From Bacillus sp. (in: firmicutes) (GTDB lineage Bacteria; Bacillota; Bacilli; Bacillales; DSM-1321), in the NCBI GenBank assembly GCA_051873995.1, contig JBJEFL010000028.1, positions 73,183-137,182 on the forward strand: a stretch of DNA of 64,000 nucleotides, read 5' to 3'. A model generated the notes under the pieces. It saw only the letters and a program-made list of their open reading frames with translations, was not told where the DNA came from and made no database searches. Every line of letters starts with the position of its first letter. Within the stretch, counting starts at the first letter, position 1. Below, piece by piece: positions 14,242 to 21,424 of this stretch. The position numbers were made by a program, and so were the translations under genes.

Positions 14242-14889
14242 TTATGCTTTATTTTGAGATTCCCAATCCGCTAAGAATGTGGCAATACCTTTATCGGTTA
14301 ATGGATGATTAAATAAAGACATAATTACCTTGTATGGAACCGTAGCAATATGCGCGCCATTTAGGGCAGCTTCCGTAATATGCATCGGATTTCGAATTGA
14401 GGCTGCAATGATTTCTGTTTCAATATTATGTAAAGCAAAGATTTGAGCAATATCGGCAATCAAATTCACACCATTTTGACCGATATCATCTAAACGTCCT
14501 AAAAATGGAGAAACATACGATGCACCCGCTCGTGCAGCCAGTAACGCTTGATTAGCACTGAAAATCAATGTGACGTTCGTTTTGATCCCTTCTTGGGCAA
14601 ATGTCGCTACTGCCTTCAAGCCGTCCGGAGTCATTGGAACTTTCACTGTTACATTCGGGCTGATTGCCGCTAGCTCTCTTCCCTCACGCACCATCCCTTC
14701 ATAGTCTGTCGCAATTACTTCAGCACTTACCGAACCTTTTACTAAAGAAGAAATTTCCTTGATTCGGTCATGAAACGACACACCTTCTTTAGCCACTAAT
14801 GACGGGTTTGTCGTCACACCAGATAATATACCTAAAGCGTGCGCTTCTTTGATTTCTTCAAAGTTAGCAGTATCGATGAAAAATTTCAT
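14242..14889 (-). CDS. tal: Transaldolase (FSA/TalC family)
   Basis: [20 protein letters not shown] Schiff-base Lys, YVSPFLGR; equivalent to B. subtilis ywjH. Confidence 0.93.
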
Positions 14890-15032
14890 ACTTTCACAAT
14901 CTCCCTTATATAAATTATTTTCAGAATTAACAAAACAGACTTAAAGCGTATATGTATCTTTTCCTCTCCATCATAATCAGTTTTCACCCCCAAATTCAAC
15001 CTTTTTATATAACTACCTTAAAAGGAAGCAAA

Positions 15033-15046
15033 TGTAAGCGGATACA
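15033..15046. promoter_or_regulatory. cre-like (CcpA) site
   Basis: TGTAAGCGGATACA, close to the cre consensus with deviations right of the central CG; between divergent tal and AEC permease. Confidence 0.5.
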
Positions 15047-15101
15047 CAATTAAACTGAAAGGCTTTCAGCCTATCTATGATCGTTCAAGCCCGTCACACC
15101 T

Positions 15102-15139
15102 TTATGTAACTTATGTAACTTACATTAGTTACATAAGTT
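15102..15139. promoter_or_regulatory. Direct plus inverted repeat operator candidate
   Basis: TTATGTAAC twice in tandem (15102-15119) and a perfect 13-bp inverted repeat AACTTATGTAACT-N6-AGTTACATAAGTT (15108-15139). Confidence 0.6.
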
Positions 15140-15241
15140 TAAAATACTTACGTTTTATTCACATCATCTTCAGTCTGCCTTATGATGAAATCCGTTCGAT
15201 ACATACACTCAATAAATTAAGAAATTTTCTTTTATATATCA

Positions 15242-15259
15242 TTGTGAATAATTTCACAA
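15242..15259. promoter_or_regulatory. Rex operator
   Basis: TTGTGAA-TAAT-TTCACAA, a perfect match to TTGTGAA-W4-TTCACAA, about 40 bp before the AEC permease start. Confidence 0.85.
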
Positions 15260-15298
15260 TTGTGTGTGTAACAAAATTATAACAGGAGGAAAATTCCT

Positions 15299-16354
15299 AT
15301 GAATCTTTTTGAAATCATTCAAACTACTATTACTGACATGGAATTTATCGGTGCAATTTCATCGACTATTTTCATTATCCTTCTTGGCTTCTTCTGCCGT
15401 AAGAAAGGAATCTTCTCTGCCGAAGTCGGAAAACTTCTATCTAATGTTGTATTAACAGTTGCTTTACCGTGTCTAGCCTTTAAAGCTTTCATGCAAGACA
15501 TTGACTCAGAAATGTTAAAGCAAGGTATGAACGTATTAATCTGGGGTATCGTAGTTTACATTATCCTCATTTTAGTTTCAAAACCACTTTTCTTAAAATA
15601 CAAATCCGATCGACAAGATACATTACGTGTCCTAACGATTTTTGGTTCAACAACATTCTTCGGTATTCCAATCGTAAGTGCCGTTTACGGGGCGGCTGGA
15701 GTAATGTTCAGTTCAATCTTTAACATCGGTTACCGTATCTTCCTTTACTCATACGGCTACATCAAAATGAGTGGGTTGAAAATGGAACTTAAGAATATTA
15801 AAACAATGTTCCTGAACCCAATCGTTATCGCAACATTTGCTGGTTTATTCATCTGGATCTTCCAAGGATATATGCCACAAGTTTCTGTCACTGCTGCTGA
15901 TGGAACGGTTGCGCAATACGCATTCCTACGTATCGACCAAACAGCGGCTTGGCTTTTCAAACCAATGACTTACTTATCTAACTTAGCGTCGCCACTTGCA
16001 TGGTTATCAATCGGCGCCACTCTTGGTGGAATCAGCTTCAAAAAAGCGGCTGCTGATAAAACATCTTGGTACTACAGCCTAATCAAAATTAGCCTTGTTC
16101 CATTAATTAATATTGCTTTGTTAACAATCTTAGCAATGACAAACATTTTGCCTGTTAGCTTTGAAGCACTTGCAACAATCGTTATCATGATGGCTACTCC
16201 AACTGCTACAGTTGCGGCTGCCTACGCAATCAGCTTCGATAAAGACGCTGTATTAGCATCTAATGCATCATTACTATCAACAATCGCCGCTATCGTGATG
16301 ATGCCAATTTGGATTGTGATCCTTGAAGTTATCAAAACTACTGGTCTGTTTTAA
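15299..16354 (+). CDS. AEC-family (auxin efflux carrier/MleP-like) organic acid permease
   Basis: 351 aa, about 10 TMs; VALPCLAF, FGSTTFFGIP, NPIVIAT, ATPTATVAAAYA motifs; RBS AGGAGG. Confidence 0.85.
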   Translation: MNLFEIIQTTITDMEFIGAISSTIFIILLGFFCRKKGIFSAEVGKLLSNVVLTVALPCLAFKAFMQDIDSEMLKQGMNVLIWGIVVYIILILVSKPLFLKYKSDRQDTLRVLTIFGSTTFFGIPIVSAVYGAAGVMFSSIFNIGYRIFLYSYGYIKMSGLKMELKNIKTMFLNPIVIATFAGLFIWIFQGYMPQVSVTAADGTVAQYAFLRIDQTAAWLFKPMTYLSNLASPLAWLSIGATLGGISFKKAAADKTSWYYSLIKISLVPLINIALLTILAMTNILPVSFEALATIVIMMATPTATVAAAYAISFDKDAVLASNASLLSTIAAIVMMPIWIVILEVIKTTGLF

Positions 16355-16464
16355 TAGTCATTCGTTTTTCCGCTCAGTGAATTTGTTCTGCATATTCACT
16401 GAGCATTTCTCGTATAACTTTCATACTACAAAACTAACTATCTTCATTTCAGGAGGAAACACAT

Positions 16465-17487
16465 ATGATTAAAATTGCTTGTTACGGCGTACGTCCAAAC
16501 GAGATTTCATTTTTTAATGATTTAAATAAACACAACTTCGAATTAACATTAATTGAAGATCTATTGACTCATGAATTAATCGCTACAGCTAAAGGGCATG
16601 ATGCTGTTCTTTTACGCGGAAACTGTGTGGCAGATGCAATCAATATTGAAAAAATGGCTGAATACGGCATTAAATATGTCTTCACTAGAACAGTCGGATT
16701 CAATCATATCGATTTAGAAGCGGCTGCAAAATACAACATGGAAGTAGCTCGCGTTCCTTCTTATTCACCAAACGCAATCGCTGAGCTTGCATTAACATTA
16801 TCCATGATGCTTTTACGTAACACCGCTTATACAACAAATAGAACGGCATATAAAAACTTCATCGTTGATGAAAAAATGTTCAGCAAAGAAATTCGTAACT
16901 GTACAGTTGGTATTATCGGAACTGGTCGTATTGGTGTAACAGAAGCTCAATTATTCAAAGGCTTGGGCGCACGAGTAATCGGATACGATAAATTCCAATC
17001 AGATTTCGCTAAGCAAGTTGTAGAGTTTAAAGATGATGTTGATTCATTATTAGCTGAAAGTGATATTGTTAGTATCCATGTGCCGTATTTCCCAGGCGAA
17101 AATGATAAAATGATCAACGCTGATTTCTTATCTAAAATGAAAAACGATGCGATTCTAATCAACACAGCACGTGGTGAGCTACAAGATAACGAAGCAATCT
17201 TAGAGGCATTGGAAAACAATCAATTAGGTGCATTCGGAACAGACGTTTTTGCAAATGAAAAAGATTTATTCTTCAAGAACTTTCAACCTTGGCAAGCACT
17301 ACCAGATCCAACTGTTCAAAAACTAGTGGACATGTACCCTCGTGTATTAGTAACTCCACATGTTGGTTCTAACACAGATGAAGCACTATCTAACATGATT
17401 GAAACAAGCTTCGATAACTTCTATGATATTTTAACTACAGGTAAAACACAAAATGCTATCGAGCTACCGGTTCCAGCTTTAGCATAA
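16465..17487 (+). CDS. NAD-dependent D-2-hydroxyacid dehydrogenase, HgdH-like ((R)-2-hydroxyglutarate dehydrogenase-like)
   Basis: GIIGTGRIG..YD Rossmann fold, INTARG, TPHVG catalytic motifs; YGVR, LRGNC and MMLLRNTAYTT resemble Acidaminococcus HgdH as recalled. Confidence 0.85.
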   Translation: MIKIACYGVRPNEISFFNDLNKHNFELTLIEDLLTHELIATAKGHDAVLLRGNCVADAINIEKMAEYGIKYVFTRTVGFNHIDLEAAAKYNMEVARVPSYSPNAIAELALTLSMMLLRNTAYTTNRTAYKNFIVDEKMFSKEIRNCTVGIIGTGRIGVTEAQLFKGLGARVIGYDKFQSDFAKQVVEFKDDVDSLLAESDIVSIHVPYFPGENDKMINADFLSKMKNDAILINTARGELQDNEAILEALENNQLGAFGTDVFANEKDLFFKNFQPWQALPDPTVQKLVDMYPRVLVTPHVGSNTDEALSNMIETSFDNFYDILTTGKTQNAIELPVPALA

Positions 17488-17506
17488 ACCGCAAATGATT
17501 CACTTG

Positions 17507-17540
17507 AAAAAGGGTTGTCTTAGGACAGCCCTTTTTCTTT
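17507..17540. terminator. Bidirectional terminator between dehydrogenase and response regulator
   Basis: AAAAAGGGTTGTCT / GGACAGCCCTTTTT stem with A- and T-runs. Confidence 0.75.
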
Positions 17541-17660
17541 CAATCCAAAAGAAGATGATAGAAAAATCGGCCCAAGAACGACATTTCTACCATCTTCCTT
17601 ATCTACACTCCTATATTTTCTGCTTCTTTCAGTTACCATGTTCCACAAAAAAGAGTATTA

Positions 17661-18374
17661 CTAATCTACCAAATATGGTTCAATCAAATTTTGATTTTCT
17701 CGTTTGTATTGATACATCGTAAGAGGTCTTCCAATATTGCCATAACTACAATAGGAAGTAATCACACCTAGTTTTTCTAAAAAGCTCAGATATTTACGAA
17801 TAGAGATTCGTGAAATACCAACAAGCTCCACCAATTCTTCTGTCGTAAATTCCAGACCTCTCGTCTCTTCAATGTAATCCCATATTCTTCTTAGAGTATT
17901 TCTTGATAGCCCCTTCGGCAAAGTTTCACTTACTGATGCTGGTCGCTTCACAATCATTAGTCGATCTAATTCACTCTGGTTCATTTGATTATTTTCCCGC
18001 AAAACCTTTGATTGTTCTCTATATGTCACCAGTGCTTCTTTAAACCGTTCAAAGCGGAAAGGCTTAATGATATAATCGACAGCCCCATATTGAAATGCCT
18101 TATGGATGCTCTTCATATCAGAAGCTGCCGTAATAAGGATGACATCAATATCCTTTTGCAGTTGACGGATAGTTGTGAGTAAATGCAGACCATCTTTTTC
18201 GGGCATAAAAATATCCAATAAAATCAACTTCACGTCGTTCTTTTCCAGAAAAGTGATTGCCTCCTTTACCGAAAATGCCTTGCCCTTCAATCGATATCCT
18301 TCTATTTCGTTCAGATAGCTTTTGTTGATTTCCGAAACCATTGGATCATCATCAACAATTAATACATCAATCAC
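17661..18374 (-). CDS. CitB/DcuR/MalR-family response regulator
   Basis: IVDDDPMV, LLDIFMP, DYIIKPF..ERF, LPKGLS..TL, wHTH ISRISIRKYL, GRP. Confidence 0.92.
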   Translation of the reverse strand: MIDVLIVDDDPMVSEINKSYLNEIEGYRLKGKAFSVKEAITFLEKNDVKLILLDIFMPEKDGLHLLTTIRQLQKDIDVILITAASDMKSIHKAFQYGAVDYIIKPFRFERFKEALVTYREQSKVLRENNQMNQSELDRLMIVKRPASVSETLPKGLSRNTLRRIWDYIEETRGLEFTTEELVELVGISRISIRKYLSFLEKLGVITSYCSYGNIGRPLTMYQYKRENQNLIEPYLVD

Positions 18375-18389
18375 ATTTTCACTCCTCTA

Positions 18390-19994
18390 TCAACATAACG
18401 GTAACTCCACAACAAAAGAAGTGCCTACTCCTACTTTTGTCTGAACCTGAAAATTACCACGTAAATTATCTATTGATTGTTTAGTCAGGTATAACCCATA
18501 CCCTCTTTCATCCCCTTTTGTTGAAAATCCTTTTTGGAAAATCGTCTCCAAAAGCTCGTTTTCAATACCAACACCATTATCCCGCACTTCCACTACTAAT
18601 TTTCCCCCCAGAGGATGAATAGAGAAAAACACTAACCTATCCTCTTTTGAGCTGACTGCGTCAAATGCATTTTCAATTAAATTGCCAGCTATCCGAATAA
18701 GATCGTGTGTCGCCTCAGTTGTTAATTCATCGGTAAAGCGGCTATCTTCACTTACTGAAAATTGAATCCCCCGTTCTCTTGCCTTGCTCATCTTGCCAAG
18801 AATAAACCCAGCAAAAATCGGGTTTTTGATTCGTTGAACAATAAAACTTTTTTCCATTTCATAATCTTCAACTAGACTCTCAATATAATGGTTCAAATCG
18901 TCATATTTTTTCAGATGAATCATACCGAGAATCACATGCAGCTTATTCATAAATTCATGCGAATGAGCCCGTAAAGATTCCGAGTAAATTTTGATTCCGG
19001 TCAATTGTTCCGCTAATAATTTCATTTCCGTCTTATCTCGGAATGTCCCGATTCCACCGACTACCTCCCCTTTTACCTCAATCGGAAAGCAATTCATCAA
19101 TACTGTACGACCATAAAAAACTTCTTCATGACCCTTTTCAGATTCACCTGTACGGATTACCTTTTCAAAAATCGGCATGTAATCCTTAACCTGTTTACCG
19201 ATCATTTCCTCATCTTTCACATTCATCAATCGACGCGCTTCTTCATTTACTAGCGTTATTTCGCCGTTTGCATTAACTGCTAGTATCCCTTCCTTCACCG
19301 ACTCAATCATTGTCTCCCGCTCCTCAAGAAGTTTAGCAATTTCAAACGGCTCCAAATTAAACAGTTTCTTTCTCACGTACTTGCTTAATAAAAATGCCCC
19401 AAACGCACCGAATAATAAAGGAAATACAGCGCAAAGATAAACAACTTGACGACTTTCTTTCATTAATTCTTCTACAAGGTCATAGGAGACACCAACAACC
19501 GCTATCCCTATCTGCGTCCCATTTTCATCCTTCACAGGCGAAAAAACACGAACCCCTACACCTAAAGGTCCCTCCTCCGTAGAGAAATATTCCTCTCCTT
19601 TTAACGCTGCCTGCGCATCTTGCCTATTGTAAAAAGACTTTCCTATTTCTTCTTCAAGCGGATGAGAAAGCCTCATCAAATCCATATCCAATATGACTAC
19701 AAACCCTACATCCGTTAATTTTGCTATGTTAACCGAATATTCCTGAACAGAACGATCATCGGGATTCTCCTCTGCATATTTGAGTCCATCTATAACAATA
19801 TCTGATTGCGCCGTCATCCTGGCGATGTTCAATATTTTTTCTGAAAGATTTTCTTTTGTTTGATTTGAAACATAGCGACTGATAAATAGACCCGTAATTA
19901 GAATAGAGATCAATACAATACTAAACACTAATAACAAAATTAACGTTTGGAGTTTAATGTTTTTTCTTTTTTTCAGGAAATGGGCATTTTTCAT
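18390..19994 (-). CDS. CitA/DcuS/MalK-family sensor histidine kinase
   Basis: Two TMs flanking a Cache-like domain (RLSHP), PAS, LRAHSHEFMNKLH H-box, GNLIENAFDA, DNGVGI, FSTKG, GYGL. Confidence 0.93.
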   Translation of the reverse strand: MKNAHFLKKRKNIKLQTLILLLVFSIVLISILITGLFISRYVSNQTKENLSEKILNIARMTAQSDIVIDGLKYAEENPDDRSVQEYSVNIAKLTDVGFVVILDMDLMRLSHPLEEEIGKSFYNRQDAQAALKGEEYFSTEEGPLGVGVRVFSPVKDENGTQIGIAVVGVSYDLVEELMKESRQVVYLCAVFPLLFGAFGAFLLSKYVRKKLFNLEPFEIAKLLEERETMIESVKEGILAVNANGEITLVNEEARRLMNVKDEEMIGKQVKDYMPIFEKVIRTGESEKGHEEVFYGRTVLMNCFPIEVKGEVVGGIGTFRDKTEMKLLAEQLTGIKIYSESLRAHSHEFMNKLHVILGMIHLKKYDDLNHYIESLVEDYEMEKSFIVQRIKNPIFAGFILGKMSKARERGIQFSVSEDSRFTDELTTEATHDLIRIAGNLIENAFDAVSSKEDRLVFFSIHPLGGKLVVEVRDNGVGIENELLETIFQKGFSTKGDERGYGLYLTKQSIDNLRGNFQVQTKVGVGTSFVVELPLC

Positions 19995-20220
19995 AGACCT
20001 TCAACCTTTCATCTATCCAGTTACATCCTGAAACAATTACTAAATATAAGCATTATTATGGACGAATCTTATTTATTTATGAACTGATCAGAAAGAAGTA
20101 ATACACCGGTCATTTGCTCACAATTTCACATAAATATTTTTTCAAAATGTTATTCATAGACAGTTTCTATTATGGTATAGCTTGCATATAGGTGTAATCT
20201 ATAATTACTCAACAAAACAA

Positions 20221-20249
20221 AATGACTTCGGTACAATACCGAAGTCATC
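20221..20249 (-). terminator. Terminator after fba
   Basis: ATGACTTCGGTA-caa-TACCGAAGTCAT stem preceded by A-runs. Confidence 0.7.
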
Positions 20250-20330
20250 TTTACACATGTATATACTCAATTCAAACGAACTATCAAATAGTGCCGTTCA
20301 AAGTAGCATTATCACATAGTTTATTATAAA

Positions 20331-21188
20331 TTAAGCTTTGTTGTTTGAACCGAATTCACGGATTTTACCGATAACAGTCGCTTTAATTGCGTCACGTCCT
20401 GGTCCGATGAATTTACGTGGATCATATACTTCTGCATCTGCAGCTAACACTTCACGTACCTTTAATGCGAATGCAATTTGGTTTTCAGTGTTAACGTTGA
20501 TTTTTGAAGTACCTAAAGAGATAGATTTTTTGATATCAGCTTCAGGAATACCTGTTCCACCGTGTAATACTAGTGGCATGTTTGTTAAGTTTTTGATTTC
20601 TTCCATTTCTGTGAAACCAAGGTTTGGTTCACCTTTGTAAGGACCGTGTACAGAACCAAGAGCTGGAGCAAGGCAATCGATACCAGTTTTTTCAACTAGT
20701 TCTTTACATTCTTGAGCATCAGCATAGATTACGCCGTCAGCGATAACATCGTCTTCTTGTCCGCCTACAGTTCCTAATTCAGCTTCTACAGAAACACCTT
20801 TAGAATGAGCGTATTCTACAACAGCTTTAGTTGTTTCAACGTTCTCTTCAAATGGATGGTGAGAAGCATCAATCATTACTGATGTGAAACCTGCATCAAT
20901 TGCTTCTTTACATTTATCAAAAGAAGAACCATGGTCTAAGTGGATCGCTACAGGAACCGTGATTTTCATGTCTTCTAATAAACCTTTAACCATCATCACT
21001 ACAGTTTTGAAACCGCCCATGTGACGAGCAGCACCTTCAGAAACTCCTAAGATAACAGGTGATTTTTCTTCTTCAGCAGCAGCAAGAATTGCTTGAGTCC
21101 ACTCAAGATTGTTAATGTTGAATTGACCTACTGCATATTTACCTTCTAATGCTTTGTTTAGCATTTCTGTCATTGAAACTAAAGGCAT
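20331..21188 (-). CDS. fbaA: Fructose-bisphosphate aldolase class II
   Basis: IHLDHG, VMIDAS, EAELG, GSVHG, LHGGTG, INVNTE motifs. Confidence 0.98.
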
Positions 21189-21424
21189 TTTATTTCCTCC
21201 TTAAGCTGTATCTGTGTACTTTGTTTTCACCAAAGCCACTCTTAATTAAATCTTCCCTAAAACATATGTAAACTATACAGAAAAAGAATCAATAGGGAAT
21301 AAGTTTGATTCCATTACTAAGAATACCAATACTTATGTGAATTCTCAAGCTGTTCCGGACCATGTACAAAAATTGTTAATAGAATATTAACAACCTATGT
21401 CTAACGCATTAATATTCCGAATAC

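Follow-up and report, generated by a model that had tools for sequence, protein, structure and literature searches.

Lactic acid bacteria can use 2-oxoglutarate as an electron acceptor, with formation of 2-hydroxyglutarate and faster growth (Radler and Brohl 1984; Zhang and Ganzle 2010, both as cited in PMC3231932), and no gene, carrier or regulator was assigned to this reduction in that work. In the (R)-2-hydroxyglutarate dehydrogenase HgdH, the arginines R9, R52 and R76 bind the distal carboxylate of the substrate; R52 varies within the family and sets specificity, and saturation mutagenesis showed that almost no substitution is tolerated at this position (PMC9396657). The two-component system MalKR of Bacillus subtilis activates an operon of an NAD-dependent dicarboxylate enzyme plus ywkB, its targets being maeN and maeA-ywkB (PMC5626966), and the operator of the Rex repressor has the consensus TTGTGAAW4TTCACAA (PMC2883068). 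Here we report a four-gene module of Bacillus sp., located on a 64,000-nucleotide stretch of contig JBJEFL010000028.1 (assembly GCA_051873995.1, positions 73,183 to 137,182), referred to below as the window. The module, or cassette, encodes an AEC-family permease, an HgdH-family D-2-hydroxyacid dehydrogenase, and a sensor kinase with its response regulator. Its probable role is to take up an external 2-oxo-dicarboxylate and reduce it with NADH, under induction by the substrate and a gate set by Rex. The genes of the module and the two genes that flank it are as follows.

14242-14889, minus strand: tal, flanking the module
15299-16354, plus strand: AEC-family (PF03547) permease gene, 351 amino acids (open reading frame and Pfam)
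16465-17487, plus strand: D-2-hydroxyacid dehydrogenase gene, HgdH family, clade 'N', NAD-dependent by family, 340 amino acids
17661-18374, minus strand: DcuR/CitB-type response regulator gene, 237 amino acids (open reading frame and NCBIfam)
18390-19994, minus strand: DcuS/MalK-family sensor kinase gene, 534 amino acids, with two transmembrane helices and sCache_3_2, PAS, SpoOB_a and HATPase domains
20331-21188, minus strand: fbaA, flanking the module on the other side

The initial annotation had described four genes inserted between fba and tal. All four open reading frames lie where it had placed them, and their families were confirmed with Pfam and NCBIfam. Since fbaA and tal are directly adjacent in nine module-free relatives (six of the same genus and three of other genera), the term inserted is correct.

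The window enzyme shares with HgdH (1XDW) and its Fusobacterium orthologues the fold and domains, the triad, the three arginines and the equivalents of N54, E12, Y101, S300 and M309. It differs from them in that it belongs to a separate clade with the replacements V11N, I15F, Y33L, T80F and Y301N, that its gene lies apart from gdh, gctAB, hgdCAB and gcd (the genome has no dehydratase), and that it is paired with an AEC carrier under predicted Rex and two-component control. With MalK/MalR (YufL/YufM) of B. subtilis the module has in common a DcuS/CitA-family kinase and a DcuR-type regulator, the cassette kinases being sister to malic-enzyme-linked kinases; the product of ywkB we take to be an AEC protein as well. 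Unlike MalK, the cassette kinase fails the MalK-specific model and has a one-residue insertion in the ligand loop instead of the GG-D loop. It is moreover linked to an AEC-dehydrogenase pair, with a predicted reductase as its target instead of malic enzyme and with an added Rex gate.

The DcuS/DcuR system of Escherichia coli (dcuB, frdABCD) is similar in that an external dicarboxylate acceptor is sensed and its use is tied to oxygen or redox state, as proposed here, and DcuS has the same ligand residues R107, H110 and R147. Fumarate respiration in E. coli differs in that the module would employ a soluble NADH enzyme without a respiratory chain, Rex instead of FNR/ArcA, and another carrier family. 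The Rex-repressed ldh-lctP operon of B. subtilis and the Rex regulons of Staphylococcus aureus share the operator consensus (PMC2883068) and the layout of an NADH-oxidising dehydrogenase with a carboxylate carrier. In ldh-lctP, however, the substrate (pyruvate) is made inside the cell, whereas here it is probably imported; the cassette also adds a dedicated substrate sensor, and its enzyme and carrier belong to other families. The proposed physiology, NADH-dependent conversion of external 2-oxoglutarate to 2-hydroxyglutarate, is the same as that of the lactic acid bacteria (PMC3231932).

The dehydrogenase contains the Pfam domains PF02826 (156 bits) and PF00389 (89 bits). It is claimed by no NCBIfam model, the top match being a D-lactate dehydrogenase (D-LDH) model with 248 bits, below the cut-off of 356. 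Among all solved structures its best relative is HgdH of Acidaminococcus fermentans (1XDW), with 339 bits and 50.4% identity, 140 bits ahead of the others; the best D-LDH reached 199.5 bits and D-HicDH 175 bits. This agrees with the resemblance to HgdH that the initial annotation had drawn from the motifs YGVR, LRGNC, YSPNAIAELA, MMLLRNTAYTT, MFSKEIRNCTVG and YPRVLVTPH, all six of which are present in the translation and align to the same blocks of 1XDW. Arginines suited to a second carboxylate had also been claimed, and the equivalents of R9, R52 and R76 are present in the window enzyme and in 119-120 of its 120 closest homologues. The equivalents of the triad R235/E264/H297 are invariant to the same degree (119-120 of 120), and N54, E12, Y101, S300 and M309 of HgdH are likewise kept in the window dehydrogenase and its closest homologues.

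The Fusobacterium enzymes, 52% identical to that of the window, adjoin gdh and gltS, or gdh, gctAB and gcd genes, and by this gene context the Fusobacterium enzyme is a true HgdH. Judged by its sequence, the window dehydrogenase belongs to the HgdH family if that family is taken broadly, in a sister clade to true HgdH. The hydroxyglutarate pathway of glutamate fermentation (gdh, gctAB, hgdCAB, gcd) was considered as its setting and rejected, because a 2-hydroxyacyl-CoA dehydratase (HGD-D) was found in none of eight cassette genomes. The hydroxy acid should then be an end product or a starting substrate and not a pathway intermediate.

The permease matches Pfam Mem_trans with 100 bits over almost its whole length (residues 18-339 on model positions 4-343 of 343), falls below the cut-off of TIGR00946, and matched none of the solved structures by sequence. 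An AEC gene is located directly upstream of the dehydrogenase gene, or in one locus directly after it, in many genera. This pair is the core of the module and occurs in Vagococcus, Pseudolactococcus, Heyndrickxia, Bacillus toyonensis, Enterococcus, Leptotrichiaceae, Latilactobacillus curvatus, Paenibacillus larvae and Virgibacillus, the last having two tandem pairs. The two genes are adjacent in 9 of 12 loci and in seven of eight further genomes from the class sample. Their presence patterns are identical across 41 genomes, and no AEC match at E <= 1e-20 was found in the 38 sampled relatives lacking the cassette. The canonical-pocket HgdH-type enzymes of Streptococcus danieliae, Gemella and Streptobacillus moniliformis also have an AEC gene just upstream, and the two of these AEC proteins that were compared (S. 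danieliae and Gemella) are 53% identical to the window permease over the full length. The carrier subfamily is thereby tied to enzymes with the pocket type of a proven 2-oxoglutarate reductase, and we propose that the window permease transports an oxo-dicarboxylate and the corresponding hydroxy product.

The kinase passes the model NF008298 (595 bits, cut-off 520) and contains sCache_3, PAS, SpoOB-type and HATPase domains according to Pfam; against the MalK-specific model NF038334 it reaches 456 bits, under the cut-off of 800. The regulator contains a receiver domain (Pfam), scores 234 bits against the DcuR model NF007750 (cut-off 262, E = 1.3e-69, residues 1-234 on model positions 1-237 of 239), and is always paired with the kinase in cassette loci. 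In the alignment of the sensor domain to DcuS (3BY8), R107, H110, F120, R147 and F149 are all kept, which we take to be dicarboxylate-type ligand residues. Aligned with 3BY8 and with Geobacillus CitA, the window kinase has R-x-S-H, F and R-V-F; the citrate sensors have Lys at the F149 position.

A DcuS-type kinase and its regulator adjoin the permease-dehydrogenase pair in at least four lineages, as expected if the two-component genes belong to the module. The cassette-linked kinases are only 34-46% identical to the window kinase, which suggested independent recruitment of unrelated kinases; this was rejected, as all 15 of them fall into one clade (support 96/96, 97% of bootstrap trees). The nearest kinases outside this clade adjoin either malic enzyme and a 2HCT carrier or a DASS carrier and fumarase, so that the earlier label 'MalKR-like' is apt in respect of the malic enzyme genes. 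Right after the F120 equivalent, every cassette-linked kinase (15/15) has a one-residue insertion and the motif F-x-(N/D)-x-x-D-A; the insertion occurs in 0 of 23 other sampled kinases, all 23 of which have x-G-G-D-E or similar there. This loop in DcuS presumably contributes to ligand binding. The single clade and the shared insertion indicate a two-component system dedicated to the cassette, and the cassette kinases probably sense a ligand other than malate, fumarate or citrate. Most likely, the four genes form one functional unit.

The regulatory elements upstream of the permease gene are as follows.

15101-15118, minus strand: putative regulator operator box, inverted copy TTACATAAGTTACATAAA, 25.4 bits, the second-best match in the genome and the left half of the palindrome
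15120-15137, plus strand: putative regulator operator box, direct copy TTACATTAGTTACATAAG, 25.8 bits, the top match in the genome
15158-15186, plus strand: candidate sigma-A promoter of the permease-dehydrogenase operon, TTCACA-17-TATGAT, 10 of 12 consensus positions
15242-15259, plus strand: Rex box TTGTGAATAATTTCACAA

The Rex box is perfect, as had been reported for this promoter. It is the only match with at most one mismatch in the 64-kb window (0.02 expected) and the sole perfect match in the 3.79-Mb genome, in which a rex gene is present. Placed between the promoter and the ribosome-binding site, it is retained in both sister species (G004 and G010). Rex-like boxes, with 12 or more of 14 positions matching and no farther than 200 bp upstream of the permease gene, were found in 9 of 17 cassette lineages against a background of 1% per 200 bp. 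A separate palindrome had been noted in addition. It has perfect 13-nt arms (15108-15120 and 15127-15139) together with the tandem TTATGTAAC, and is best read as a head-to-head pair of 18-bp regulator boxes. In other genera, the loci that carry the two-component genes have an 18-bp direct repeat upstream of the permease gene, with the consensus TTACATAAGTTACATAAG. A weight matrix built solely from cassette promoters of other genera ranked the two window boxes first and second in the whole 3.79-Mb genome, the next-best site outside this promoter reaching 20.2 bits. No operator box was found in the scanned kinase-less cassette loci, and two loci with two-component genes, that of the sister species G004 (L015) and that of the B. 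toyonensis plasmid (L018), are also under the operator threshold. The candidate sigma-A promoter lies between the regulator boxes and the Rex box, and similar hexamers align in the two sister species.

In the mechanism that we propose, the membrane kinase would detect an external dicarboxylate through its DcuS-type periplasmic domain and phosphorylate the regulator, which would bind the pair of 18-bp boxes (15101-15137) that immediately precedes the -35 hexamer and switch on the permease-dehydrogenase operon. Rex, bound to the operator at 15242-15259 downstream of the promoter, would block transcription until NADH/NAD+ rises, and the operon would operate as an AND gate that requires both the presence of substrate and an over-reduced cell. 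The AEC permease would import a 2-oxo-dicarboxylate, most likely 2-oxoglutarate. The HgdH-family enzyme would then use NADH to convert the oxo-acid to the D-2-hydroxy acid, most likely D-2-hydroxyglutarate, with regeneration of NAD+. The hydroxy acid would leave the cell, perhaps through the same carrier by exchange with substrate. Because Rex control marks NADH-consuming fermentative functions, reduction is indicated rather than oxidation. Net regeneration of NAD+ needs an externally supplied oxo-acid, which fits the outward-facing sensor and carrier, and as no enzyme for further conversion is present, the product has to exit the cell. The initial annotation had read the module in this way, as a low-oxygen system for the import and NADH-linked reduction of a 2-oxo-dicarboxylate, and the alignment, the co-occurrence of the genes and the recurring Rex boxes support it; the substrate we infer. 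In its general form, this mechanism is the one we hold to be probable. The choice of 2-oxoglutarate specifically is a tentative, not quite even call. 2-Oxoglutarate is the most stable and commonest external 2-oxo-dicarboxylate, and the nearest characterised enzymes (HgdH) act on it.

Several observations weigh against this mechanism. Five pocket residues are consistently changed with respect to HgdH (V11N, I15F/Y, Y33L, T80F/Y and Y301N), the window enzyme having N, F, L, F and N at positions 11, 15, 33, 80 and 301. The pocket was compared in the 120 closest homologues of the window enzyme and the 120 closest of one Fusobacterium enzyme. Positions 33, 301 and 11 are L, N and N in 115 of 119 close homologues of the window enzyme, and Y/F, Y/F and V in 112 of 115 relatives of the Fusobacterium enzyme. 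When the tree is rooted with D-LDH, the proteins with the changed pocket group in a single clade (support 99/100) on a long stem of 0.65 changes per site, and the changed pocket and long stem together could reflect a different substrate. The kinase clade is sister to the malate sensors, and its ligand residues do not discriminate between C4 and C5 acids. About half of the 17 lineages scanned have no Rex box upstream of the cassette. Finally, the characterised bacterial AEC carriers are known as importers of malate or malonate, and no precedent for exchange is known.

In one alternative, regulation and electron-sink role are the same but the substrate is oxaloacetate, reduced to D-malate, or 2-oxoadipate. 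The five clade-wide replacements surround the distal carboxylate, and with bulky F/Y residues at positions 15 and 80 the pocket could be shorter; the affinity of the kinases to malate sensors would suit a C4 acid, and the OdhA-like E1 encoded near the Heyndrickxia cassette (described below) could act on 2-oxoadipate too. Oxaloacetate, however, is an unstable compound seldom found outside cells, and 2-oxoadipate is also rare. Moreover, the same AEC subfamily is paired with canonical-pocket HgdH enzymes, and the cassette kinases have an insertion that is absent from the C4 sensors. We consider a substrate of this kind unlikely, though less so than the other alternatives.

The initial annotation had offered a utilisation route for D-2-hydroxyglutarate or D-malate as its own alternative, in which the permease would import the hydroxy acid and the enzyme would oxidise it for central metabolism. 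The dehydrogenase reaction is reversible, and a substrate-sensing two-component system beside a permease is typical of utilisation operons, such as MalKR with maeN and maeA-ywkB (PMC5626966). This route fits poorly with Rex control, since Rex de-represses at high NADH, when NADH-producing oxidation is least useful, and Rex boxes recur upstream of the cassette across lineages. The known bacterial oxidation of D-2-hydroxyglutarate is carried out by FAD enzymes and is not known to involve this family. A catabolic role is thus improbable.

An overflow or detoxification role is less probable again. Here, internal 2-oxoglutarate would be reduced, the AEC protein would only export the hydroxy acid, and the kinase would sense a precursor such as glutamate, malate or fumarate. 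AEC proteins are 'efflux carriers' by name, and the Enterococcus cassette adjoins aminotransferase and alanine dehydrogenase genes. Formation of 2-oxoglutarate from sugars or glutamate, however, generates no less NADH than its reduction uses up, and because there is no net redox gain from internal 2-oxoglutarate, the Rex gate would be pointless. Streptococcus, Gemella and Latilactobacillus are also unlikely to make surplus 2-oxoglutarate.

The least probable alternative is an ordinary fermentative dehydrogenase for D-lactate or another mono-carboxylic 2-hydroxy acid, with a lactate exporter as in the Rex-controlled ldh-lctP, for although relatives are publicly annotated as 'lactate dehydrogenase', the top NCBIfam match is the D-LDH model and Rex control is similar, the score against that model is under the cut-off (248 vs 356), HgdH is 140 bits above any D-LDH, R52 (a position that we take to be Tyr in D-LDH and Leu in D-HicDH) is invariant, and a dicarboxylate-type sensor is dedicated to the cassette.

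Of the 12 genomes of the genus, only 3 contain close copies of the dehydrogenase and permease, and no other of the 41 relatives has them. Across 401 genomes of the class, the dehydrogenase clade was found in nine genomes of five genera. The permease-dehydrogenase pair is conserved across Bacilli and Leptotrichiaceae, and the module is not confined to Bacillaceae. The B. toyonensis copy (L018, 3197-9487) is located on a plasmid, flanked by fragments of a DUF772 transposase and of an IS240-type DDE transposase, with all four genes co-directional in the order kinase, regulator, dehydrogenase, permease, and the P. larvae copy is located between prophage genes and a transposase gene. These settings amid transposase and prophage genes indicate that the unit moves horizontally.

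Within the genus, the same four genes are found at the same site in both sister species, and the base composition of the module is that of its flanks. The permease and dehydrogenase have 88-90% amino acid identity within the genus and the flanking fbaA, tal, murAB and pyrG 88-98%, whereas the kinase and regulator are only 63-70% identical to the window copies. Divergence of the kinase is evenly spread along the protein. The high divergence of kinase and regulator could be due to allele replacement by recombination or to fast evolution. A short contig of the assembly (C37, 3,698 bases) was considered as a second kinase paralogue and rejected, as it represents another allele of the same locus (fbaA, kinase and regulator) that stems from a related strain. 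It has the same gene order as window positions 17600-21300, its fbaA is 93% identical at the DNA level, and its kinase and regulator share 80-88% identity with their counterparts in the sister species G004 and only 66-70% with those of the window. The contig looks like a strain or species mixture in the assembly, for which a contamination of 4% is reported.

Some of the loci in other genera have further features. Virgibacillus pantothenticus (L032/L033, 3177-8026) has two tandem permease-dehydrogenase pairs; a Rex-like box (13/14) is present only at the kinase-adjoining pair, upstream of which a regulator box is also found, while the other, upstream pair has a best match of 10/14 and so no Rex-like box. 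In Heyndrickxia sporothermodurans (L019, 1-5497), the cassette is divergent from an operon of lpd, a DASS carrier and an OdhA-like E1, the E1 gene being cut by the end of the locus, and a malate:quinone oxidoreductase gene lies on the other side of the cassette. The operon may provide a second, oxidative route for the same external acid. In Enterococcus mundtii and E. spodopteracolus (L022/L023, 2114-5637), a kinase-less cassette is divergent from genes for a class-III aminotransferase, alanine dehydrogenase and a 2,4-diaminopentanoate-dehydrogenase-like protein, which hints at a link to amino-acid fermentation there.

The remaining sequence features of the locus are as follows.

15032-15046, plus strand: cre-like (CcpA) match ATGTAAGCGGATACA, a full match to WTGNAANCGNWNNCW; doubtful
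16372-16404, plus strand: intercistronic hairpin with perfect 11-bp arms and an 11-nt loop
17507-17540, plus strand: Rho-independent terminator GGGTTGTC-TTAG-GACAGCCC followed by a T-run, after the dehydrogenase gene; read from the sequence and not listed by the pattern scan
20083-20055 and 20198-20169, minus strand: candidate kinase-regulator promoters from the pattern scan
20219-20251, minus strand: fbaA terminator, a 15-pair stem followed by a T-run

The cre-like site had been reported as part of the permease promoter. The match to the consensus is full; its frequency, however, is not above chance (four matches in the window against 1.7 expected, with 13 of 100 shuffles reaching as many), and the site is not conserved, lying within a stretch of about 80 bp (about 15020-15100) that is absent from both sister species. 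It was rejected as a member of the circuit on these two grounds and, if functional, may instead serve the tal promoter. The same stretch, situated between the tal promoter and the regulator boxes, also holds a small hairpin (15060-15072). The 110-bp spacer between the permease and dehydrogenase genes has a fold of -24.9 kcal/mol (z = -5.1). Inverted repeats of other sequence were seen by eye in the same spacer of the sister species, and the spacer is only 20-40 bp long in other genera. The hairpin may set the product ratio or stabilise the transcript. The convergent regulator gene may share the terminator that follows the dehydrogenase gene. Because of the fbaA terminator at 20219-20251, the kinase and regulator genes need a promoter of their own, between this terminator and position 19995, where the two candidates are found.

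All four protein families are known, and the regulatory logic is paralleled by DcuSR in fumarate respiration, by Rex with ldh-lctP and by MalKR with maeA-ywkB. New are the combination of the four genes, the 18-bp operator, and an enzyme clade and a kinase clade that each stand apart, the latter with a loop signature of its own. Literature about homologues of HgdH in Bacilli, about Rex combined with AEC or 2-hydroxyacid dehydrogenase genes, about 2-oxoglutarate/2-hydroxyglutarate antiport and about '2-oxoglutarate reductase' yielded no description of the cassette, within a coverage that is incomplete. The statement of the initial annotation that no such route was known in Bacillaceae agrees with this result; the module itself extends beyond that family.

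A more specific proposal, which we regard as possible but doubtful, is that the AEC carrier and the HgdH-family reductase form a self-contained, horizontally mobile 'electron-sink cassette' that operates by antiport of external 2-oxoglutarate against internal D-2-hydroxyglutarate. If so, it would supply the genes so far missing for 2-oxoglutarate-dependent fermentation in Bacilli. Enterococcus, Vagococcus, Gemella, Streptococcus and Streptobacillus would turn host 2-oxoglutarate into the signalling metabolite D-2-hydroxyglutarate, and the new branch of DcuS-type kinases would comprise the first 2-oxoglutarate sensors of the family. Should the broader reading hold, namely Rex-gated uptake and reduction of an external 2-oxo-dicarboxylate, the 40-year-old observation of 2-oxoglutarate as an acceptor in lactic acid bacteria would gain its genes, carrier and regulatory circuit, and bacterial AEC carriers a new substrate class. 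The promoter would represent a simple, reusable two-input design that responds to substrate and redox state, and host-associated Bacilli and Leptotrichiaceae would be a microbial source of D-2-hydroxyglutarate.

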